The position numbers and the translations under genes were made by a program. The notes under the pieces are model-generated. The model made no database searches, was not told the DNA's origin, and was given only the letters and a program-made list of their open reading frames with translations. Below, one piece after another: positions 2,260 through 60,853 of a stretch of 64,000 nucleotides of DNA. The stretch's first letter is position 1. The number at the start of each line of letters is the position of its first letter. Location of the stretch: positions 7,324 to 71,323 of the forward strand of contig CAZSRU010000001.1 of NCBI GenBank assembly GCA_964609395.1. The letters are read 5' to 3'. The stretch comes from an uncultured Victivallales bacterium. Its GTDB lineage: Bacteria; Verrucomicrobiota; Kiritimatiellia; UBA8416.

Positions 2260-3132
2260 TTAAATGAGTGACATCAGGATGTCCGACTTGGTCGATTCCT
2301 CGTGGATTTCATCCACGATAAGGGATATATCCGATACGGATAAGCCAAGGCGCTTCCAGACGGTTTGCACACATGCCGGATCAGCAAGATCGCCACCGTT
2401 GCCGATCTGTTCGCGATTGCAGATATAGTTAGCCATGTGGCACAGCGCTGTCGCTTCCCAATACTCGGGGGGCGCTGAATCGGGATCGTGGTGCCAGAGG
2501 ATCGGCAGCATCAGGTCTTCGGCCATGTTCCATTTGCCGCAAAGCCATCCGCCGAGTGCTGCATGATCGATTCCCGCCGCCTCCAGCTCTGCGCTGTAAA
2601 GGCTCATTGGCCTCGAACTGGCCAACGCAAGCGCGGCATGGAACTCATCGGCCATGAATTGATCCATGATCAGCTTGCCGATATCGTGGAGCAGGCCGAC
2701 AAGCCGCAAGGTCTCGTTGGTATGTCTTTTCTTCAAATTCGGCTTCGCATGCTTATTCACGACACAAGCCGCAATTCCCACGCTGATGGAATGCCGCCAG
2801 AACTCATCGCGGTTGAAATTGCCGCCTTGCTGATGACCGAATGCAGAGAAAATGGACGTGGATAGGGCAATGTTATTGGTGGCGGTCAACCCCAGTCTCG
2901 CCACCGCTTGTTGCACGGACTGTATTTCTACCCCGCCTGCATAAAGGGATGAGTTAACCACTTTGAGAATTCGTGCCGTAATCGCCGGGTCGTCCTCGAT
3001 CAGCCGCGCAATCGAGTTGGCGTTTGAATTGGGGTCGCGCACGGCTGCCGACAGCTTGTTCATAACGAGTGGTAGTGTCGGCAGGTTGCGTACGCCGTTC
3101 AGGATATCGATGATTTCATTAATGTTTTTCAT
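2260..3132 (-). CDS. HDOD-domain signalling protein
   Basis: HDOD-type motifs (ITARILKVVNSSLY, LHDIGKL, HAALG) in a 290 aa protein. Confidence 0.7.
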   Translation of the reverse strand: MKNINEIIDILNGVRNLPTLPLVMNKLSAAVRDPNSNANSIARLIEDDPAITARILKVVNSSLYAGGVEIQSVQQAVARLGLTATNNIALSTSIFSAFGHQQGGNFNRDEFWRHSISVGIAACVVNKHAKPNLKKRHTNETLRLVGLLHDIGKLIMDQFMADEFHAALALASSRPMSLYSAELEAAGIDHAALGGWLCGKWNMAEDLMLPILWHHDPDSAPPEYWEATALCHMANYICNREQIGNGGDLADPACVQTVWKRLGLSVSDISLIVDEIHEESTKSDILMSLI

Positions 3133-3176
3133 TAACAGCCGCAGCCTTTCTGACGGGATTGCGTATGAGTTGTCAA

Positions 3177-3578
3177 TTAATCTGTTGTGGTCTTCTCGGG
3201 AGTCCTGCCAAGTAGGCGCGTCATGATATCGCGAATGCCTTCGGGCGTAAAGGGTTTGTTTAGATATTCACGCACACCCCGGGCCTTGAGTTCGCGCATG
3301 CGCATCTCGCTGCGGTCGGTACTGACGATGACGACCGGCGTTTCCTTTAATTTACCCTGTCGTTCCATCTCCTCGACCATCTCGACCCCGTTCATCACCG
3401 GCATGTTAAGGTCGGCAAACATCAGGTCAACCCATTGGGCATCGAGTATATCAATGGCTTCGCGCCCGTTGGCCGCCTCGAAGATCTCACCGATATCCTC
3501 GCCGGTCATGCGTACCGCACGTCCGACGACTTTGCGTACAATTGCGGAATCATCAACAATTAAAATATTATAAGCCAT
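3177..3578 (-). CDS. cheY: Chemotaxis response regulator CheY
   Basis: 133 aa single receiver: [35 protein letters not shown] motif. Confidence 0.85.
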   Translation of the reverse strand: MAYNILIVDDSAIVRKVVGRAVRMTGEDIGEIFEAANGREAIDILDAQWVDLMFADLNMPVMNGVEMVEEMERQGKLKETPVVIVSTDRSEMRMRELKARGVREYLNKPFTPEGIRDIMTRLLGRTPEKTTTD

Positions 3579-7031: not shown

Positions 7032-7539
7032 TCTGGTTGCCTGTGGCATGTCGGGTGCTTATAGCTCCGGCATGAGACAGAACTTTTCTCGATATTGTCG
7101 CTCAGCGCTTCTTCTTTCTGTGATATTGCTTTCTATGCGAACGGCGCTTGCCGCCGATCAAACGAATGCAAATGGACAAGCCATGCCGTCGCGGGATGTG
7201 CCCGCTTGGGTCTCGCAGTCATCCGGCGGTTCCGCAGATACGCTGGCCCGGCCAGGCCGTTATGGTGCTTTCCGCTCGATGGCGGCTCTGCTGGTTGTGC
7301 TTGGCGGGTTATTCGGGGTGCATGTGCTTCTGCGCCGGCGTGGTGCACTTTGGACTAGCCCCGATCTTCTGTCGTTGCGCGTTGTGGCCCGCAAGCGTTT
7401 CGGTGCACGACAGGAACTGATTGTAGTCGAATGGGAGGGGCAGCGCCTGCTCCTAGGGGCGGGGCCCGGTTTTATTACCCGACTTAGCCGCATGGCGTCG
7501 GCAACAAAGCCGCAGGGTGCAGAGGAGCAGGATTCATGA
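7024..7539 (+). CDS. fliO: Flagellar biosynthesis protein FliO (exact start uncertain)
   Basis: Single TM segment and conserved FliO C-terminus LLSLRVVARKRFGARQELIVVEWEGQRLLLGAG; followed directly by fliP. Confidence 0.75.
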   Translation: MGDLVACGMSGAYSSGMRQNFSRYCRSALLLSVILLSMRTALAADQTNANGQAMPSRDVPAWVSQSSGGSADTLARPGRYGAFRSMAALLVVLGGLFGVHVLLRRRGALWTSPDLLSLRVVARKRFGARQELIVVEWEGQRLLLGAGPGFITRLSRMASATKPQGAEEQDS

Positions 7540-8659: not shown

Positions 8660-9436
8660 ATGACCGTGCTGCTGGGGGATTATCCGGTTGTCCTGTTGAT
8701 GGTGTTCTTCCGGGTGAGTGGTGTCCTGCTGGTTCTGCCGTTCTTCGGCATCCCGGCGGACAGCGGGTGGTTGCTGGCGGGAGCGTCGCTGCCGTTGACG
8801 CTTCTCTTCGCCAGCGTCATTTCACCATCCTGGAGTGCCGCCGCAGCCGCCCTGACCACAACGGGCGACTTGGTGCTGGCTATTTTTGGCGAAACCATGC
8901 TTGGCTCGGCGATCGGCTTGGTTTGCGGGATTTTTATCAACGCTTACGTGGTTGCCGGCACCCTTGCCAGCAGCGGATGTTCGCTGTCAATGGCCGAGGA
9001 ACTGGATCCGATAACCGGCGAGTCCTCGGATGTGCTGACGCAGGTTTGGCGCATGCTTTTCCTGTTGACGGTGCTGTCAACGGACGCGCACCTGATGGTT
9101 TTCCGCATCCTGGCGCGCACGTTCGAGCAACTGCCAGTGCCGTGGGTCGGTTGGGTGCATGGCGGACGCGACCTGGCATTGCTCGGGGGCACCGCATTCC
9201 GTGCCGGAATGTCGATCGCACTGCCGATTATTCTGGTTTCATTACTGGTCAGTATAGGTATGGCCTTGATCGCCCGAATGGCCTCCGGCTTTGATGTCAT
9301 GTTTCTCTCGCTGCCTTTCCGCTTGCTACTCGGGTTGAGTGTTTTTGCTCTTGCCTTGCTGTTGGGCGGCGGACTCCTGCGCACTATGGCATATCAGATG
9401 CTATCATCCTTGTCTCAGTTCCTAGGATGGTATTAA
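8660..9436 (+). CDS. fliR: Flagellar export gate protein FliR
   Basis: 258 aa polytopic membrane protein in fliPQR-flhB order. Confidence 0.85.
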   Translation: MTVLLGDYPVVLLMVFFRVSGVLLVLPFFGIPADSGWLLAGASLPLTLLFASVISPSWSAAAAALTTTGDLVLAIFGETMLGSAIGLVCGIFINAYVVAGTLASSGCSLSMAEELDPITGESSDVLTQVWRMLFLLTVLSTDAHLMVFRILARTFEQLPVPWVGWVHGGRDLALLGGTAFRAGMSIALPIILVSLLVSIGMALIARMASGFDVMFLSLPFRLLLGLSVFALALLLGGGLLRTMAYQMLSSLSQFLGWY

Positions 9437-12707: not shown

Positions 12708-13923
12708 GATGAAGATCCGCCGTTATAAAGGCTCGAGTCGCGAAGAACTCTACCAGTTGATTAACAAGGAGATGGGGCCGAACGCAGTCGTTGTGGCTCC
12801 TGAGACCTCGGGTGGGGGACTATTGACGCGCGGTAAGAAATATGAATTGATCGCGATTCTGGAGGATGCGGAAGAGTCGGGGGCGTCAACCGCAAAGGCG
12901 GCCCCTGCGGGGGGGGCGGCCGACCCTGCGGTCGCAGACGATATGAACCGGTGGCAGCGTATACATACCAGGCAGTGGCGCGAACTGCAAACGAAGATGA
13001 GTCAAATCCAGAAGACCGTGGATACGTTGCAGGCTGGGCATCATGCCCCCCGCGGCGTTGCGCCGGATTCACTGCCTGTGCACGCGGCACTGTGGGACTC
13101 GCGTTTTGTTCAATGGGCAAGGCGGGAAAAAATGGAGCTGCTGGATGCCGATGCGCAACAAGTACGCGCTATTCTGGGCGATTCCCTGCCGATCGAAGGG
13201 CATTTCCAGTTCAAGGGACAGCAAAAGAAACCGCATATTATTGTCCTGACCGGTCCTACCGGATCCGGCAAGACCACGACATTGGCCAAGATGGCGGCAA
13301 TCTGTGCGCATCAGGAGCGCTTGCGTGTCGGTATTGTCAGTATCGATACCTACCGGGTGGCGGCGGTCGATCAGATCCGCGAGTATGCCTCGCTGCTGGA
13401 CATGGAGTTACGCGTTGCGTTCTCGGCGGACGAGGCGCGTTCCGCGATTGCAGAGCTCGCCGATAATGATGTGATTCTGGTGGATACGCCCGGCCGCACC
13501 CATTTTGATGAGATGGGGCTTGCCGTCAGTCACAAGGTTCTGCGGGGAATGGGGGAAATGACGGTCCTGTTAACGATCCCGGCGACCTTGAGTATCAACG
13601 ATCTGGCCGATACGCTGCAGGGGTTCAAGCGCTTTCAGCCGCGTTATCTGGTCGTGACGAAAGTGGATGAGACGCGCCAACCGGTTCTTTTTACGGCCTT
13701 GCCTTTCGAAACGGATTTGAAGGTTGCGTTTGTGACCAATGGGCAGCGGGTCCCGCAGGATATTTTTCCCGGTGACGCCGAGCGGATTGGCGCACTACTG
13801 ATGCCGACGCGAGGGAGCGTTGAGTCCTCACCCAAGCCGTTCAGTTCGGTTTTGCAAGACCGCGTTGACAGTGTTCACGCAACGCGTGCCCGTGCCGCGG
13901 ATGATGCCGGAGGCAGGCAATGA
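12700..13923 (+). CDS. flhF: Flagellar SRP-type GTPase FlhF
   Basis: GPTGSGKTTT P-loop, DTPGR, TKVDE motifs; follows flhA. Confidence 0.9.
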   Translation: MREMKIRRYKGSSREELYQLINKEMGPNAVVVAPETSGGGLLTRGKKYELIAILEDAEESGASTAKAAPAGGAADPAVADDMNRWQRIHTRQWRELQTKMSQIQKTVDTLQAGHHAPRGVAPDSLPVHAALWDSRFVQWARREKMELLDADAQQVRAILGDSLPIEGHFQFKGQQKKPHIIVLTGPTGSGKTTTLAKMAAICAHQERLRVGIVSIDTYRVAAVDQIREYASLLDMELRVAFSADEARSAIAELADNDVILVDTPGRTHFDEMGLAVSHKVLRGMGEMTVLLTIPATLSINDLADTLQGFKRFQPRYLVVTKVDETRQPVLFTALPFETDLKVAFVTNGQRVPQDIFPGDAERIGALLMPTRGSVESSPKPFSSVLQDRVDSVHATRARAADDAGGRQ

Positions 13924-16794: not shown

Positions 16795-17175
16795 TTAGTT
16801 GCCCAGGAGTTCCGCCATTTTAGCCTTGAGGGTTTCGGGGGTGAACGGTTTGACAATGTAAGCATTTGCCCCGCAAGTCAATGCCTCGATGACGTCGTCC
16901 TTCGCCCCTTCTGTCGTTACCATCATGATGGGAACCTTGCCGTAGGACGGCAGGCTGCGAAGTCTCTTGATCAGCTCCAAACCGTCCATGTTCGGCATAT
17001 TCCAGTCAGTCAGCACGCAGTCAAACTGCGCATTCTCGCAAAGCTGGATCGCTTCCTGTCCGTCGGCGGCTTCGGTGACATCGTTGAAGCCGCAGCGGGC
17101 AAGCGTCATCTTGAGGATGCGACGCATGGTCGAGGAATCATCGGCTACCAGTATTTTTGGATCTGATGCGCTCAT
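16795..17175 (-). CDS. cheY: Chemotaxis response regulator CheY
   Basis: 126 aa: ILVADDSSTMRR, LTDWNMPNMDG, PIMMVTTEG, YIVKPF. Confidence 0.9.
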   Translation of the reverse strand: MSASDPKILVADDSSTMRRILKMTLARCGFNDVTEAADGQEAIQLCENAQFDCVLTDWNMPNMDGLELIKRLRSLPSYGKVPIMMVTTEGAKDDVIEALTCGANAYIVKPFTPETLKAKMAELLGN

Positions 17176-17325
17176 AGGCTTTCCATCTGTGCAGGTTTTA
17201 TGAAACTATCTTGATCGGCGAAAAAGAACGAATTGGTGACGTTTAATAGCCTATGTTCGAGCAGAATTCAATCATTAAAACATATGTTATAAACAATCCT
17301 GTGGTGTTTTTTGCCGGTTTGCCGG

Positions 17326-17341
17326 TGGCACTGGATCTGCT
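17326..17341 (+). promoter_or_regulatory. sigma54 promoter TGGCACtggatCTGCT upstream of flgL (-12 C is 14 nt before the ATG)
   Basis: GG at -24 and GC at -12 with exact spacing; 12/16 consensus. Confidence 0.6.
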
Positions 17342-17353
17342 AACAGTCAAGGC

Positions 17354-18280
17354 ATGCGAATTACTCCAGATATGAATATGCGAATGATGTCAGGTGCCAT
17401 GATGCGGCATCAACAAACGTTGTTTGATGTGCGGCGGCAAATGTCTTCTGGACGAAAAGTCAATCTGGCCTCCGATGATCCTGGTGCTTACGAGGCGATC
17501 CAGGGCTTGAAATCGGATTTGTCGCAGTTGTCGCAGTTTGAGCGGAATTCCAATATGGCCCGGCATTATCTAACGATGCTGGATAGCAGCCTGGACAAGA
17601 CCGTGAACCTGGTGCATCAGGCCAGTGAGTTAGCCGTGCGCGCGAGCGATGCCACATTGGATCCCGGCACGCGCGAGGCCATGGCACAACAGGCGGAGCA
17701 ATTGTTGCAGTCGCTTCTGGCCGTGGCCAACAGTTCCGAGGGCGGCCGCTATAATTTTGCCGGCCTGAGGGCGAGTGAGAAACCGTATGTCGAGCAGGTT
17801 GATCCGGTAACCGGTCGGATTACCGCTGTGGTATATGCGGGAAGCGAAGAAACCCGGATGATCAAGATCGGCCCGGAACAATACGCGGCGACCAATATTG
17901 CAGGGAGTCAGTCGGTAGGTGAGGGAGGCATATTCCAGACGTCGACACGAGATTTATTTGATAGTGTGATTCGTTTGCGCGATTCGCTGTCGGCTGGTGT
18001 GAATGGTGCGGAAACCGATAACCTTGAACGGCTGAACGACGACTTGAACCATGTTCTGGGTCAAGTGAGCTTGAACGGAGCCCGGCACGAGCAGGTCAAT
18101 ATGAATGTGTCCTATCTGCGTGAGATGCAATTAACCAACCAGCAATCGCTTGCGACGCTGGATTCCGTTGATATGGCGGAAGCAGCCATGCAGCTTTCAC
18201 AGGCGCAAACGGCCTATCAAGCGGCCCTTCACGGTACTTCAACCCTGATGCAGCAAGTGTCCTTGCTGAATTACATGTAA
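17354..18280 (+). CDS. flgL: Flagellar hook-associated protein 3 FlgL
   Basis: N-terminus MRITPDMNMRMMSG...RKVNLASDDPGAY matches FlgL/flagellin D0; flagellin-type C-terminus. Confidence 0.85.
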   Translation: MRITPDMNMRMMSGAMMRHQQTLFDVRRQMSSGRKVNLASDDPGAYEAIQGLKSDLSQLSQFERNSNMARHYLTMLDSSLDKTVNLVHQASELAVRASDATLDPGTREAMAQQAEQLLQSLLAVANSSEGGRYNFAGLRASEKPYVEQVDPVTGRITAVVYAGSEETRMIKIGPEQYAATNIAGSQSVGEGGIFQTSTRDLFDSVIRLRDSLSAGVNGAETDNLERLNDDLNHVLGQVSLNGARHEQVNMNVSYLREMQLTNQQSLATLDSVDMAEAAMQLSQAQTAYQAALHGTSTLMQQVSLLNYM

Positions 18281-25802: not shown

Positions 25803-26431
25803 TGTTGTCTTGCCTGATTACTGCTGGTGCCAGCCTTCTCGTCTTTCTGTTTACGAATGAGATCACTCCAGGCTACAGCATGTTCGATGCCATTGTCGCC
25901 CAGCGCGACGGCGGCATCCATAATGGCCCCCGCCTGGCGGTCTGCCAGATTGTATAGAATGCGTGCCGCCTGATCATTTTCCATTTCAGTAAGCAGTCTG
26001 GCGGCATTCTGTGCATCCATTTTGGCGTAGAATTCAGCCAGTTTCCGGGTATTTATCTTCTCTGCTTCATCAAAGGCCTTGAAATGCTTCTCCAGCGCTT
26101 GCTCAGCCGATGTAAGCTCATCGCGCATCCGCTGTAATAGAATTTCCTCCTGGCGGACACGGGCCTCACGATTGTCGAGTTGCTCTTTTTGCCGATTCAT
26201 TGCCTCCTGACGGGCACGAATTTCCTCCAGCAGAACGTCGACCGCCTGGCTTTGTTCGGAAAATATGCTTGATCGCGAGTCGCGAGATTGAGCCTTTGCG
26301 GCCTCTTCCACGTCGGGGTCGGTTTTCGAGGAATCCGCGTCAGCGCTCAGGCGTCCTGTTGCGTAGATGGTTGCGAGCATGCTTAGGGCGGCGGCGCAGA
26401 GCATGCAAACAAAAACAAACAGACCTTTCAT
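25799..26431 (-). CDS. MgtE-N-like flagellar protein (YlxF/FlbB-position protein between fliJ and fliK)
   Basis: Signal/TM N-terminus, coiled coil, C-terminal motif ARLLTEMENDQAARILYNLADRQAGAIMDA typical of the MgtE_N/MotE family. Confidence 0.6.
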   Translation of the reverse strand: MKGLFVFVCMLCAAALSMLATIYATGRLSADADSSKTDPDVEEAAKAQSRDSRSSIFSEQSQAVDVLLEEIRARQEAMNRQKEQLDNREARVRQEEILLQRMRDELTSAEQALEKHFKAFDEAEKINTRKLAEFYAKMDAQNAARLLTEMENDQAARILYNLADRQAGAIMDAAVALGDNGIEHAVAWSDLIRKQKDEKAGTSSNQARQQ

Positions 26432-32631: not shown

Positions 32632-32644
32632 GCTTGCCAGTATA

Positions 32645-32660
32645 AGCACCCTGCGTGCCA
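32645..32660 (-). promoter_or_regulatory. sigma54 promoter TGGCACgcaggGTGCT immediately upstream of flgB (-12 C is 15 nt before the ATG)
   Basis: Exact GG-N10-GC spacing with a TGGCAC -24 element; just downstream of the EBP gene stop. Confidence 0.6.
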
Positions 32661-32668
32661 TAGGCAAG

Positions 32669-34153
32669 TTACAGACCAGCCGGCAGGGAGCCTTCCTCGC
32701 GGTAGCGATTGAGCTTGTTTCGCAGCGTGCGGATGCTCACACCGAGCAGATCGGCCGCCTGGTTGCGCTGCCCATCGGTTTTTTCCATGGCGCGCAGGAT
32801 GGTTTGCCGTTCCAGCGCATCCAGGCATAGCGTCGTGTTGGCTGGGGAGGGGACCGCGCTGTCCGGGGCACATTCGCTCGCTGGCTTGCTTTCGGCGGGA
32901 GGCGTATGGGGGGGACTCTGCGTGGCCGGTTCCAGGATGGCCGAGTTCGCTCGTGTGCAGGTGCTGCCGTGCACTTCTGGCGGTAGCATCGCTGGCGTCA
33001 GTTCCGGCCCCTTTTCCATGACGCAGAGACGCTCAATCAGATGTTCCAGTTCGCGTACATTACCCGGCCAGGTGTAGCGGCACAGGATGTCGAGTGTGTC
33101 CTGGCGGAACCGCAAACCGTCGGTTTTGCCAGTCAGATTTCGAAGGTGCCGTTTGAGAAAGTTGTCTGCCAGCATCGGGATGTCCTCTGGCCGCTCGCGC
33201 AAGGGTGGCACATGGATGGGGACGACATTGAGCCGGTAGTATAGATCCTGCCGGAAGCCGCCCTCGCGCACATAGCTTTGCAGATCGCGGTTCGTGGTGG
33301 CAATGATCCGGCATTCCGCGCGCAGCGTTCGGCTTCCGCCAACACGTTCGAACTCACGCTCCTGAATCACGCGCAGCAGCTTCGCCTGCAGACCGAGCGG
33401 CATCTCGCTGATCTCGTCCAGCAGCAACGTCCCGTTGCCCGCGAGTTCGAAGCGTCCCGGGCGCCGGTTGATTGCCCCTGTAAAGGCCCCCTTCTCATGC
33501 CCGAAAAGTTCACTGTCGGCCAGCGATTCCGGTACGGCCGCGCAGTTCATACGCACAAAAGGACGTTTGCGGTATTCCCCGAGTCCGTGGATGGCCTGGG
33601 CTACTAATTCCTTACCCGTACCGCTTTCGCCTGAGATCAGTACCGTCGAGGAAGAAGCGGCGACGCGTTCAATCTGCTCGATCAGCTTTTGCATGGCGAC
33701 GGTTTGGCCGAGCAGGCGTTTTCCCTTTGGCATCGACCAGCCGAGCTCTTCCTTGAGATAGTCGTTTTGCGCATTGAGCCGCACCCACTCCTTTGCCCGG
33801 TTCAGGACGACTTCCACCTGCTCCGGTGAGAAGGGCTTCATGAGGAAGTCGATCGCTCCCAGTTTCATCGCTTCCACGGCTTGCTCCACGGTGCCGAAGG
33901 CGGTGACCATGACCGTCAGGGTCTCGATACCCGCCTCCTGCTTCCAGCGCAGCAGGTCCATGCCGCCTAGAACCGGCATTTTGATGTCGACGAAGGCCAT
34001 GTCGAAGTCGCGTTCTTCCATCAGTTTCTGTGCCTGTGCCCCATTACCAGCCTGCACCACCTCAATTCCAGCACGTGTGAGGGTTTCCACCACAAATTCG
34101 CGCATCAGTATGTCATCATCAACCACAAGCACGGTTTCAATACTGGAGATCAT
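32669..34153 (-). CDS. sigma54-dependent response regulator (FlrC/FleR-type: receiver + AAA+ + HTH)
   Basis: Receiver domain, GESGTGKE Walker A, GAFTGA-type sigma54 contact loop, C-terminal Fis-like HTH. Confidence 0.9.
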   Translation of the reverse strand: MISSIETVLVVDDDILMREFVVETLTRAGIEVVQAGNGAQAQKLMEERDFDMAFVDIKMPVLGGMDLLRWKQEAGIETLTVMVTAFGTVEQAVEAMKLGAIDFLMKPFSPEQVEVVLNRAKEWVRLNAQNDYLKEELGWSMPKGKRLLGQTVAMQKLIEQIERVAASSSTVLISGESGTGKELVAQAIHGLGEYRKRPFVRMNCAAVPESLADSELFGHEKGAFTGAINRRPGRFELAGNGTLLLDEISEMPLGLQAKLLRVIQEREFERVGGSRTLRAECRIIATTNRDLQSYVREGGFRQDLYYRLNVVPIHVPPLRERPEDIPMLADNFLKRHLRNLTGKTDGLRFRQDTLDILCRYTWPGNVRELEHLIERLCVMEKGPELTPAMLPPEVHGSTCTRANSAILEPATQSPPHTPPAESKPASECAPDSAVPSPANTTLCLDALERQTILRAMEKTDGQRNQAADLLGVSIRTLRNKLNRYREEGSLPAGL

Positions 34154-35427
34154 GCTTCCACTCCTGTTTTGGGTAATTCAACACTAAATAGACTGCCTCT
34201 GCCGGGTTCGCTGGAGATGTTGATCTCGCCACCGTGGATATCGATGATTTTGCGGGTGAGCGATAAGCCTAGGCCGGTGCCGCCTTCCTTGGATGTAAAG
34301 AAAGGATCAAACACTTTGGACACAAGCAACGCATCCATGCCGCACCCGTTGTCGCGCACATGCAAGGCGACCGTGTTGTGGCTATCGGTGGCCGATATAT
34401 GGACGGTGCCGGAGGCGTCGCAGGCCTCAATGGCGTTGATTCCCAGATTGAGCAGCGCTTGGGTTATCTGGCGGTAGTCACCGCGGAACTGTATGTCTGG
34501 CTCGGGCGGTGTCATGACGAGACAAACGCGGGTGCGTGTGGCCCGGTCTTCCAGTGTTTCCCGGCAGGATTCGAATACGGCCGCAACGGATACCTGTGAT
34601 ATCTGCAGACGCATCGGGCGTGCATAGGTCAGTAGGTTGGTGATGACATAATTCAGGTTCTGAGCGCCCTCGACGATCCGTTCCGCCAGGCGCAATGGGC
34701 CGGGCATGGTTTCCAGATCCCGTCGCAGCAGCCGTGCAAACCCTTCGATCGTACCCAGGGGATTGCGAATCTCGTGAGCCACGCTGGCTGCCATCTCGCC
34801 AAGGGCGGCAAGCCTCTCCTGGCTTTGGAGGCGCTTTTCCATGCGGCGGAATTCGGTGACATCACGCAGATTGCATATCGCACCCAGAATCTTGCCGTCG
34901 GGTGCGGTTACCGGGGCAAGACTCAGCAGTATTCGTCGCGTTTCGCCCTGCCCATGGCTCGTGGTCCAGGGATGGTCAAGCAATGGCGTGTCGCCGTGGA
35001 GTACCCGCCCCAGGTGTGATTCTGATTCCGGCGCCTGCACGATATGCGAGAACAAGGCATTCTCGATTTCCGGACGCGTTACCTGCAGCAGGCGGCATGC
35101 GGCTGAATTACACCGTTCAATACGCCCGTCCTGGCCGACGACCAACAACCCGTCGGTCAGGCTTTCAACCACGCTTTCCAACCGACTGGAGACCTGCCGG
35201 AGCGCTTGGTTCGTGGCCGTCAACTCGCTGTTACGCTCCTGCAGGGTCTTGTTGGAGCTGGCAAGGTCAGCTTCCAGTGAGCGGTAAGCCTTCTCCAGTT
35301 GGCGGCTTTGGCGCTCGAAGATTTCAAATGCCGACTGCACGGCCGCCAAGGTTCCGTCGTTTTGATTTGAAACCGGAACCGTCGCGGAAGGGGCTAGGGT
35401 ATGGATGGGAAGGTGAGGGGCCTGCAT
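34150..35427 (-). CDS. PAS-containing sensor histidine kinase (FlrB/FleS-type)
   Basis: PAS domain, HisKA (SVAHEIRNPL) and HATPase_c (GTGLGLS) motifs; overlaps the start of the cognate EBP gene. Confidence 0.85.
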   Translation of the reverse strand: MQAPHLPIHTLAPSATVPVSNQNDGTLAAVQSAFEIFERQSRQLEKAYRSLEADLASSNKTLQERNSELTATNQALRQVSSRLESVVESLTDGLLVVGQDGRIERCNSAACRLLQVTRPEIENALFSHIVQAPESESHLGRVLHGDTPLLDHPWTTSHGQGETRRILLSLAPVTAPDGKILGAICNLRDVTEFRRMEKRLQSQERLAALGEMAASVAHEIRNPLGTIEGFARLLRRDLETMPGPLRLAERIVEGAQNLNYVITNLLTYARPMRLQISQVSVAAVFESCRETLEDRATRTRVCLVMTPPEPDIQFRGDYRQITQALLNLGINAIEACDASGTVHISATDSHNTVALHVRDNGCGMDALLVSKVFDPFFTSKEGGTGLGLSLTRKIIDIHGGEINISSEPGRGSLFSVELPKTGVEA

Positions 35428-39423: not shown

Positions 39424-40800
39424 TCAGATAGTTATGCTGTGATCCTTGATTTTTCTTAGCAAGGAACTGCGATGGATTTTTAGAATTTCGGCCGCTTGGC
39501 CGCGATGTCCGCTCACGTCGCGCAAAACACGCATAATCAACTGTCGTTCGCATTCGGCAAGGCTCATGGATGGAATCTCAGAGGTCTGACCGGTGGGGGG
39601 CTGTGTTTTGGCCGGTGTTGCTTGTTTGCCGTTTGGAATGGCAAGATCCTTGGCATCAATCTCGTTGCCTGTACACAGAATGACGCCGCGTTCGATCGAA
39701 TGGCGCAGCTCACGGACGTTCCCTGGCCAGTCATAAGCGCAAAGTGCTTCCATGGCCGCCGTCGTGAATCCACTAAGGTGGCTGCCTGCTGTTTTTTTGT
39801 GATGATTGAGGCACTGTTCCGCAAGCTTTGGAATACTTTCCGGGTGCTCACGCAGCGGCGGCAGGGTCAGGGGGAAGACCGACAAACGGTAATAGAGATC
39901 CTCGCGGAACGTACCATCCTTTACCATTTCCTGTAGATTGCGGCAGGTGGCGGCGACGATGCGCACATCCACCTGAATGACTCGGCTCCCGCCTAAACGG
40001 CGGAATTGCTTGTCCTCGATCACCTTTAGCAGTTTCGCCTGCAGAGCGGGGGCCATATCGCCGATCTCATCGAGGAAAACCGTGCCGCCATCGGCGATTT
40101 CAAGCAAACCGGGTTTGCTGACCTTGGCATCAGTGAAGGCACCTTTCTCATAACCGAAAACCTCGCTTTCCATCAACGGCCCCGGAATCGCCGAGCAATT
40201 GATGTCGACAAACGGCTTCGCGGCACGTGCGCTGAGGCGATGCACGGCAGACGCCATCATTCCTTTTCCAGTTCCGCTTTCCCCTAAAAGCAGCACCGTC
40301 GTGTCGGGGAAGGCGGCAATGCGCTGTACTTTTGTAAAGAGATCACGCAGGGCTCCGCCGCCAATCATCTCGTCGAGCTGCCAGACGTCGCCGCCGGAAC
40401 CGGTCGATAGCCGCGCGAGTCCCTCCACGCGCTCTTCCATGTTGACCGCTTTCTCAACATTACGGATGATTTTCTCAAGTTGCTCGTTTTCGTACGGTTT
40501 AGGTAAGTAGTCGTAGGCCCCGCTGCGAATGGCTTGAATGGCTGATCTGACATCGCTGTGGCCGGTTACAAAAACAACGTAAGCTCCCTTTGATAAGCCG
40601 TTGATCTCTTCAAGGAAATGGAAACTGTCGCCGTCGGGTAATCGCCGGTCAAGAAAGATCAGCTTGAATTGATTATCCTTCAGTCGGCTGCGTGCTTCGC
40701 TTAACGAATCGCAGGCTTTGACGTCGTGGCCTTTGCGCTTTAAAAGGTCAAACATGACCTTGCGCTGGATTTCGTCATCTTCAACGATTAGAATATCCAT
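39424..40800 (-). CDS. sigma54-dependent response regulator (NtrC/FlgR-family, second copy)
   Basis: Receiver + AAA+ (GESGTGKG) + GAFTDA + C-terminal HTH. Confidence 0.9.
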   Translation of the reverse strand: MDILIVEDDEIQRKVMFDLLKRKGHDVKACDSLSEARSRLKDNQFKLIFLDRRLPDGDSFHFLEEINGLSKGAYVVFVTGHSDVRSAIQAIRSGAYDYLPKPYENEQLEKIIRNVEKAVNMEERVEGLARLSTGSGGDVWQLDEMIGGGALRDLFTKVQRIAAFPDTTVLLLGESGTGKGMMASAVHRLSARAAKPFVDINCSAIPGPLMESEVFGYEKGAFTDAKVSKPGLLEIADGGTVFLDEIGDMAPALQAKLLKVIEDKQFRRLGGSRVIQVDVRIVAATCRNLQEMVKDGTFREDLYYRLSVFPLTLPPLREHPESIPKLAEQCLNHHKKTAGSHLSGFTTAAMEALCAYDWPGNVRELRHSIERGVILCTGNEIDAKDLAIPNGKQATPAKTQPPTGQTSEIPSMSLAECERQLIMRVLRDVSGHRGQAAEILKIHRSSLLRKIKDHSITI

Positions 40801-44982: not shown

Positions 44983-44998
44983 AGCAGGGTTAATGCCA
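44983..44998 (-). promoter_or_regulatory. sigma54 promoter TGGCATtaaccCTGCT upstream of fliD (-12 C is 17 nt before the ATG)
   Basis: Exact -24/-12 spacing; core GCTAGCAGGGT shared with the LysM-operon promoter. Confidence 0.6.
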
Positions 44999-45002
44999 TG
45001 GA

Positions 45003-45035
45003 GGATTATGGAAAAAAAAACGGGACGCCGTTCAG
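45003..45035 (-). terminator. Rho-independent terminator of flagellin 1 (8-bp GC stem CGGGACGC/GCGTCCCG followed by T9 on the minus strand)
   Basis: Perfect inverted repeat followed by a 9-nt U-tract in the transcribed orientation. Confidence 0.8.
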
Positions 45036-45058
45036 AGCGTCCCGCTTATGCCACTTAT

Positions 45059-46453: not shown

Positions 46454-46469
46454 TGGCATCCGTGGTGCT
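46454..46469 (+). promoter_or_regulatory. sigma54 promoter TGGCATccgtgGTGCT upstream of fliW-csrA
   Basis: Exact spacing; ~70 nt before the fliW ATG. Confidence 0.5.
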
Positions 46470-60837: not shown

Positions 60838-60853
60838 TGGCACGCATATTGCA
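60838..60853 (+). promoter_or_regulatory. Consensus sigma54 promoter TGGCACGcataTTGCA upstream of rpoN, preceded by a ~60 nt AT-rich tract
   Basis: Perfect match to TGGCACG-N4-TTGCA; 53 nt upstream of the rpoN ATG. Confidence 0.7.

Follow-up and report, generated by a model that had tools for sequence, protein, structure and literature searches.

Predicted sigma-54-driven leaderless mRNAs for five flagellar genes of an uncultured Victivallales bacterium

The subject of this work is a stretch of 64,000 nucleotides from an uncultured Victivallales bacterium of the phylum Verrucomicrobiota (GenBank assembly GCA_964609395.1, contig CAZSRU010000001.1, positions 7,324 to 71,323), referred to in what follows as the window. 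It contains a large flagellar locus, and five genes in that locus (flgL, flgB, fliD, fliO and the conserved open reading frame (ORF) ORF51684) each have a motif of the sigma-54 (RpoN) promoter type so close to the ATG that transcription would be expected to begin on the start codon or within a few nucleotides of it. I propose that these five genes are expressed as sigma-54-driven leaderless mRNAs, a reading to which I give a probability of about 0.75, with the geometry of the motifs as its basis.

The sigma-54 holoenzyme normally starts about 12 nt (range roughly 10-16) downstream of the GC doublet at -12, a doublet that in the S. meliloti nifH system is numbered -14/-13. The sigma-54 motif of C. 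jejuni ends 8-13 nt upstream of mapped transcription start sites (TSSs), and for the glnA gene of Xylella the listed positions, counted from the ATG, are -46 for the sigma-54 site and -35 for the TSS. It is from the usual GC-to-TSS distance and from motif geometry that I infer the position of the TSSs, the dependence on sigma-54 and the mechanism of translation. The short-spaced motifs would be genuine sigma-54 promoters, activated by the NtrC-type bacterial enhancer-binding proteins (bEBPs) of the same locus. The transcripts would have as their first base the A of the AUG or one that lies 1-5 nt ahead of it, giving a 5' untranslated region (UTR) of 0-5 nt. There is no room for a Shine-Dalgarno (SD) sequence in such a 5' UTR and none is present, which is why the first cistron would be translated in leaderless mode, by direct recognition of the 5'-terminal AUG.

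Sigma-54 motifs and their distance from the start codon

The window has 10 exact copies of the strict pattern TGGCAY-N6-TGCT where 0.37 are expected, an enrichment of about 27-fold, and none of 100 shuffled sequences reaches 10. An eleventh strong site, upstream of rpoN, is a perfect TGGCAC-N5-TTGCA. The motifs have the GG and GC doublets 10 nt apart that mark -24/-12 promoters (TGGCAC-N5-TTGCW-like), and 11 out of 11 are oriented toward flagellar genes or rpoN. The distance to the start codon, counted from the C in the -12 doublet to the first base of the ATG, is bimodal: 14, 14, 15, 15 and 17 nt at five sites and 27-80 nt at the remaining six (Table 1). Under a model in which distances are uniform between 14 and 100 nt, the chance that five of 11 promoters fall inside one 4-nt window is about 7.5e-5. 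Motifs with one or two mismatches gave only noise, and among them no credible additional short-spaced site was found in the window.

The genome has what sigma-54 promoters need, namely rpoN itself and two genes for bEBPs with AAA+ activator domains, all in the window. One of these NtrC-type regulators and its partner kinase adjoin the flagellar genes (at flgB), as in the sigma-54/sigma-28 flagellar hierarchy of the Vibrio/Campylobacter type. Their presence, together with the enrichment, the orientation and the conservation of the motifs at orthologous positions, supports the view that the motifs behave as real sigma-54 promoters. The motif upstream of rpoN suggests that sigma-54 is autoregulated.

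Most genes of the window have an evident SD sequence. Judged by the energy of the duplex with the anti-SD sequence, 40 of 68 genes reach -6 kcal/mol or lower, as opposed to about 10% of random positions. The five short-spaced genes lie between -3.0 and +1.2 kcal/mol (flgL +0.5, fliD +1.2). Because 40 of the 68 genes have a strong SD, the lack of one at these five is meaningful in this clade, and the five SD-less genes coincide exactly with the promoters that abut an ATG. The start codon is ATG in all 26 of the short-spaced cassettes that were compiled, and folding over the first 45 nt is weaker in the short-spaced genes (-4.1 kcal/mol) than in those led by an SD (-7.1 kcal/mol).

The six promoters with longer spacing serve as an internal comparison. 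A recognisable SD precedes five of the six start codons; that of fliK is weak. The leader of flgI is the shortest, since a distance of 27 nt from motif to ATG predicts a leader of only about 15 nt. Its GAGGA lies at the extreme 5' end of this predicted leader, an intermediate architecture. Distances from motif to ATG that are long in the window stay long in relatives, whose loci are identified here by L numbers: 70-91 nt for flhB in L007, L094 and L095, 60-88 nt for fliK in L003, L005 and L094, and 73-102 nt for fliW in L088-L090. The flgF-like gene stands 39 nt from its motif in L088 and, if the called start is used, 35 nt from it in L090.

A preliminary description of the window had pointed to motifs 14-17 nt before the ATGs of flgL, flgB, fliD and ORF51684, without SD sequences, and took the repeated geometry as a sign of leaderless translation. 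All four sites are where it placed them, and the spacer energies given above agree that they lack an SD. Its list was incomplete: the site of fliO is not in it, nor are the six motifs at 27-80 nt. The repetition on which it relied holds up well, in that the sites are enriched, the spacing is conserved among orthologues, and a fifth site extends the set.

Table 1. Predicted promoters, genes and other features of the window (distances run from the C of the -12 GC to the A of the ATG)
Feature	Position	Strand	Details
fliO sigma-54 promoter, TGGCATGTCGGGTGCT	7044..7059	+	14 nt to ATG 7072
fliO, 155 aa	7072..7539	+	Pfam FliO, TIGR03500
flhB sigma-54 promoter (internal control)	9387..9402	+	80 nt to ATG 9481; weak G-rich SD
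cheY-like response regulator, divergent from flgL	16795..17175	-	Pfam Response_reg
flgL sigma-54 promoter, TGGCACTGGATCTGCT	17326..17341	+	-12 C at 17340, ATG 17354, distance 14
flgL (hook-associated protein 3), 308 aa	17354..18280	+	start MRITPDMNMR; no SD; Pfam Flagellin_N/C
fliK sigma-54 promoter	25877..25892	-	76 nt to ATG 25802; weak SD, -2.5 kcal/mol
flgB (proximal rod protein), 109 aa	32302..32631	-	Pfam Flg_bb_rod; first gene of flgB-flgC-fliE-fliF-fliG...
flgB sigma-54 promoter, TGGCACGCAGGGTGCT	32660-32645	-	-12 C at 32646, ATG 32631, distance 15
NtrC-type bEBP, directly upstream of flgB	32669..34153	-	receiver, AAA+ sigma-54 activator domain, HTH_8
PAS histidine kinase, partner of bEBP 32669-34153	34150-35427
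Second NtrC-type bEBP	39424..40800	-
fliD (filament cap), 491 aa	43492..44967	-	start MSVTPDFRISGL; no SD; Pfam FliD_N/C; public gene call has identical start
fliD sigma-54 promoter, TGGCATTAACCCTGCT	44998-44983	-	-12 C at 44984, ATG 44967, distance 17
Intrinsic terminator	45018..45047	-	12-bp stem and T run; ends ~12 nt before fliD -24 element
fliW sigma-54 promoter	46454..46469	+	70 nt to ATG 46538; SD GAGGG
ORF51684 sigma-54 promoter, TGGCACGGAGGCTGCT	51655..51670	+	-12 C at 51669, ATG 51684, distance 15
ORF51684, conserved 106-aa protein in flagellar locus	51684..52004	+	N-terminus conserved with synonymous changes
flgF-like rod gene sigma-54 promoter	53158..53173	+	39 nt to ATG 53211; SD GGAGG
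flgI sigma-54 promoter (minimal leader)	56425..56440	+	27 nt to ATG 56466; SD GAGGA
rpoN sigma-54 motif, TGGCACGCATATTGCA	60838..60853	+	53 nt to ATG 60905; sole perfect consensus in window
rpoN (sigma-54), 512 aa	60905..62443	+	Pfam Sigma54_AID, Sigma54_CBD, Sigma54_DBD

Start codons and conservation of the spacing

Comparison with homologues indicates that the ATGs of flgL, flgB, fliD and ORF51684 are the real start codons. The ATG of flgL is the first start codon after an in-frame stop. The protein that begins there has an N-terminus, MR[IV]T[PST][DE]MN, that is conserved in about 31 homologues of the clade and in homologues of about 30% identity, while codons 2-5 differ by synonymous changes (CGA/AGA, ATT/ATA, ACT/ACA/ACC). 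The N-termini of 69 FliD homologues show M-x(2-8)-RI[SG]GL-SG-D to be general, and initiation at the next in-frame ATG of fliD would delete the conserved RISGL-SGFD motif and part of the FliD_N domain. In the flgB locus of L003, the stop codon of the bEBP gene is in frame 13 codons upstream of the ATG, and no start codon lies between the two. The protein encoded by ORF51684 has the conserved beginning M...(E/Q)K.TN.LYRQKY. The preliminary description had named initiation at downstream codons as the outcome contrary to its reading; the conserved N-termini, the synonymous changes in codons 2-5 and the upstream stop in L003 rule against it. Extensions in the other direction fared no better: one of flgB through its promoter (TTG 32667 or ATG 32661) is allowed in the window and one of ORF51684 could begin at GTG 51654, and neither is conserved in relatives.

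Public gene calls for these genes are often wrong (proteins P0001, P0003, P0005, P0008, P0013, P0081 and P0095). FlgL has been cut to 302-303 aa or else extended through the promoter, so that P0003 begins MWHGCC, which is ATG-TGG-CAC and so on. FliD has been extended to 519 aa (P0081) or truncated (P0095), a call from a downstream start giving 483 aa. The orthologue of ORF51684 in L088 (gene 3001-3351) was called from a GTG inside the -24 box. FlgB, FliO and the ORF51684 protein of the window, as defined here, are not present in the protein collection that was searched.

The spacing is conserved while the sequence of the spacer drifts. In six genomes whose FlgL proteins are 47-100% identical, the distance from the motif to the ATG of flgL is 14, 16, 14, 14, 14 and 14 nt. 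When the six are aligned, TGGCA, TGCT, ATG and codon positions stay constant from genome to genome, and the spacer varies. The flgL cassette is kept behind upstream neighbours of four kinds, among them a divergent cheY-like gene, tad-pilus genes and, in a non-flagellar context, a photolyase gene. In the window, L088, L089 and L090, respectively, fliD has distances of 17, 16, 17 and 16 nt and ORF51684 distances of 15, 15, 17 and 14 nt. The terminator hairpin and T tract that precede the fliD cassette are also found in L088-L090. The distance for flgB is 15, 14 and 15 nt in the window, L003 and L004, with a diverged spacer in L003. The flgB cassette of L004 is identical to that of the window and the DNA upstream of its promoter is unrelated. 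There (the metagenome-assembled genome (MAG) bin_212, about 7100-7205), the bEBP gene before flgB is replaced by repetitive-looking DNA (cgttcaccgttctcgtcgccgttctcgttcacc...) that reaches to about 8 nt before the -24 element.

The arrangement is different in a more distant group whose FliD proteins are 37-39% identical. Here fliD has a leader, with 51 nt between motif and ATG in L091 and 74 nt in L096, the latter with a GGAG SD. The flgF-like gene of L096 lies 14 nt from its motif and is thus short-spaced. Orthologues therefore change from one layout to the other between lineages.

The closest genome relatives found in a scan with FliG, which yielded two relatives only, are the unclassified Verrucomicrobiota MAGs UBA6015 (76% FliG identity) and bin_212 (94%). 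The window itself belongs to a metagenome contig of 120 kb (JGI 3300020048, Ga0207193_1000150). The flagellar genes of the window are fliOPQR-flhBA, flgL, fliK, fliI, fliG, fliF, flgBC, fliD and the flagellin genes, and with them fliW-csrA, fliS and flgFGHI. At the syntenic position, L007 and L094 have a gene called as a fliA-like sigma factor. Nothing convincing was found in a search for sigma-28-like motifs near any gene start in the window, nor for sigma-28-like and sigma-70-like promoters near flgL and fliD. An Rfam search of the window gave no matches.

Other observations concern the genes and sites themselves. ORF51684 forms a conserved unit with ORFs of 256 and 104 aa (window 51684-53082), located between fliS-orf99 and flgF and syntenic in L088-L090. 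The three ORFs match no Pfam or NCBIfam family and may encode lineage-specific flagellar proteins. About 8-10 nt ahead of the -24 box of flgL is a conserved TTGCCG (window 17312-17322; aligned in L005, L094, L095 and L007), which belongs to an imperfect palindrome, GGCA-N5/6-TGCC. This pattern was rejected as an upstream element of flgL: the window shows no enrichment of it (9 vs 4.5), and one of the copies is simply the stem of a terminator. In L089 an unannotated ORF of 84 aa (MYKPMQDNEREG...CCGC...), downstream of an asnB-like gene, has a strict sigma-54 motif (13571-13600, + strand) 15 nt ahead of its ATG.

The proposed leaderless mRNAs and their alternatives

Several considerations weigh against the idea that all five genes give leaderless mRNAs. 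At a spacing of 16-17 nt the 5' UTR may be 3-5 nt long, and extra 5' nucleotides reportedly reduce leaderless translation in E. coli. Both flgB and fliO have co-directional genes 37-40 nt upstream, and read-through transcripts could carry both. The spacers of two relatives are rich in G (GGAGG in L007, GGGG in L005) and would resemble an SD if an upstream transcript existed; both are upstream of the point where transcription is predicted to start. In 15 of 15 cassettes of the clade the base before the ATG is a pyrimidine. Given a background of 66% among SD-led genes this is weak evidence, and as a signature of a TSS it was set aside, not being significant for the five independent genes. A rival start for fliO, GTG 7024 with a weak SD, is possible, and the sole support for ATG 7072 is that the orthologue in L007 was called at 156 aa.

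Suppose, then, that the transcripts start not on the AUG but 3-7 nt before it, and that the 30S subunit initiates on an unstructured, SD-less 5' end rather than the 70S ribosome recognizing a 5'-terminal AUG. Distances of 16-21 nt do exist (16-17 for fliD, 21 for flhB of Oleiharenicola), flagellar genes of Opitutaceae generally lack an SD, and the 5' coding regions of the short-spaced genes are weakly structured. Yet the modal distance of 14 nt leaves a leader of 0-2 nt if the GC-to-TSS distance is normal, the clade of the window uses SD sequences for most genes, and every short-spaced gene starts with ATG, as expected of leaderless mRNAs. I consider a very short leader unlikely. A little further down I would put the idea that longer transcripts read through from upstream promoters or operons, that the motif is a secondary internal promoter, and that a leadered mRNA is translated by coupling or by some other SD-independent mechanism. 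Short same-strand gaps, of 37 nt between the bEBP gene and flgB and of 40 nt between a DUF2225 gene and fliO, would permit this, and some Verrucomicrobia translate most genes without an SD. It does not suit flgL, which has no co-directional upstream gene because its cheY-like neighbour is divergent, which shows no sigma-70-like promoter in its intergenic region (searched over 16900-17450), and whose cassette is kept among unrelated neighbours, one of them non-flagellar. Nor does it suit fliD, whose cassette stands directly behind a conserved intrinsic terminator, or flgB of L004, with its identical cassette despite unrelated upstream DNA. And it leaves the spacing of 14-17 nt unexplained.

It is too much to expect that the starts have been misplaced, with translation beginning at a downstream in-frame codon and the region after the promoter serving as an ordinary 5' UTR. 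Public gene callers do often pick downstream starts (for FlgL and FliD, those giving the shorter proteins mentioned above), and flgL has several in-frame ATGs within its first 17 codons. However, the protein sequence from the first ATG to the later ones is conserved and its DNA differs by synonymous changes, distant FlgL homologues also begin MR[IV]T, the next ATG of fliD would cost the protein a conserved motif, and no SD precedes the downstream candidates. Equally hard to credit is the notion that the motifs are not active promoters at all, being chance matches or sigma-54 binding sites with some other role. What it has in its favor is that relaxed sigma-54 patterns occur near chance frequency (51 vs 39 expected). 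Against it are the enrichment of the strict pattern, the orientation of all 11 sites, the presence of rpoN and the bEBP genes, and the fact that the columns invariant among orthologues are exactly TGGCA, TGCT and ATG. Leaderless mRNAs driven by sigma-54 thus remain my preferred account of the five genes.

Other lineages, known systems and significance

The same geometry, to judge from motifs and gene starts, occurs independently in Opitutaceae. The control set consisted of about 940 kb of flagellar loci from diverse bacteria, drawn from among the FliP matches listed (44-57% FliP identity), and the counts that follow hold for those matches. Eight of the 15 strict sigma-54 motifs in these loci have the ATG of a long ORF 13-19 nt downstream. 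The eight genes are three flhB, a rod gene, fliP, flbD, a fliK-like gene and an apparent ptsP-type gene. The three flhB genes encode the canonical N-terminus M[AS][DE]..KTE.PT, and six proteins from the eight cases that were looked up exactly match public gene calls. Going by the names of homologues (Oleiharenicola, Lacunisphaera and Opitutaceae MAGs), the flhB lineage belongs to Opitutae/Opitutaceae. Short-spaced promoters were found in four of four Opitutae-like loci of at least 6 kb, as opposed to two cases in about 70 loci of other lineages. Oleiharenicola (GCA_004118375.1) has a short-spaced motif at a rod gene (16 nt) and another at flhB (21 nt).

Some Verrucomicrobia are poor in SD sequences and translate most genes without them. 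The flagellar genes of Oleiharenicola (L092) have almost no SD and have C-rich upstream regions (...ccccgATG), unlike those of the window's clade. For this reason the absence of an SD is diagnostic in the clade of the window and not in Opitutaceae.

Also in L092, a strict motif at 3477-3510 lies within a 613-aa fliK-like ORF, with an in-frame ATG 17 nt further on from which a C-terminal product of 211 aa would be made. In L020 a gene of 197 aa stands by itself with the same geometry. The motif in L092 could be an internal promoter or the ORF a fused gene call. Strict motifs also lie 16 nt before the ATG of flbD (L061, 4568, + strand) and 13 nt before that of the apparent ptsP-type gene (L079, 4529, + strand), in two loci of non-Opitutae lineages with 67-71% GC. 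This layout may therefore not be confined to Verrucomicrobiota or to flagellar genes.

Sigma-54 control of rod, hook and hook-associated genes is found in Campylobacter and Helicobacter (FlgSR), Vibrio (FlrBC), Pseudomonas (FleSR) and Caulobacter (FlbD), and the locus described here resembles theirs in its GG-N10-GC promoters, in the NtrC-type activators beside the flagellar genes, and in the classes of gene controlled, known here from motifs and genes. To my knowledge, the flagellar promoters of those systems give ordinary 5' UTRs with ribosome-binding sites, unlike the present locus, where five of 11 promoters abut the ATG.

Absence of an SD also recalls the SD-poor initiation of Bacteroidota and of some Verrucomicrobia such as Akkermansia. 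Their SD-less genes generally still have 5' UTRs. The clade of the window differs from them in having a strong SD on most of its genes, so that the five without one stand out.

Leaderless mRNAs are well known from Actinobacteria, Deinococcus, Epsilonproteobacteria and rhizobia, with promoters of the sigma-70 type. The five genes resemble these in a predicted 5' end at or next to the AUG, in the lack of an SD, in the exclusive use of AUG, and in orthologues that are leaderless in some related genomes and SD-led in others. What marks those known promoters is a -10 box, either TANNNT or an extended TGnTA, placed 5-9 nt ahead of the ATG. Here the element beside the ATG is the -12 box of a sigma-54 promoter, so transcription would need an ATP-dependent activator. 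The spacers contain no such -10 box, apart from that of flgB in the window (32632-32644, - strand), where a -10-like TATACT ends 7 nt before the ATG. A leaderless promoter of the sigma-70 type has this geometry; the hexamer is not conserved in L003.

Transcripts without a leader and promoters of the sigma-54 class are each well known. In the map of C. jejuni made by differential RNA sequencing, leaderless mRNAs go with a sigma-70 promoter in every case and with a sigma-54 promoter in no case. The TSS study of B. japonicum gives an extended -10 box as the leaderless motif and says that no promoters specific to leaderless genes have been described, and the TSS maps of S. meliloti and Leptospira report leaderless mRNAs and sigma-54 promoters separately. 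Full-text searches of the literature (leaderless together with sigma-54/RpoN or Verrucomicrobia) turned up no paper linking the two, and no earlier report of the combination was found.

A broader idea, which I hold tentatively and at somewhat less than even odds, is that Verrucomicrobiota have a distinct, activator-dependent class of leaderless promoter. Transcription by sigma-54 polymerase would start on the A of the AUG or 1-3 nt before it, at the first genes of flagellar (possibly other) operons in at least two deep lineages, with orthologues toggling between this form and one with a leader and an SD. Leaderless expression from sigma-54 promoters can be tested directly, since a named Oleiharenicola genome shows the geometry and its family, Opitutaceae, has cultured members. 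If such a class exists, then expression would be set entirely at the tightly gated sigma-54 step, and its mRNAs would escape regulators that act on 5' UTRs, for example the CsrA/FliW pair of the same locus.

If the five genes are indeed leaderless, then an enhancer-dependent class of promoter joins the routes by which leaderless mRNAs are produced, and a bacterium with normal use of SD sequences keeps a defined leaderless subset in one regulon. The existence of such a subset would also account for the systematic errors in gene starts, in which public calls are truncated or extended through the promoter. Natural pairs of leadered and leaderless orthologues would then be available for the study of how one mode of initiation is converted to the other.

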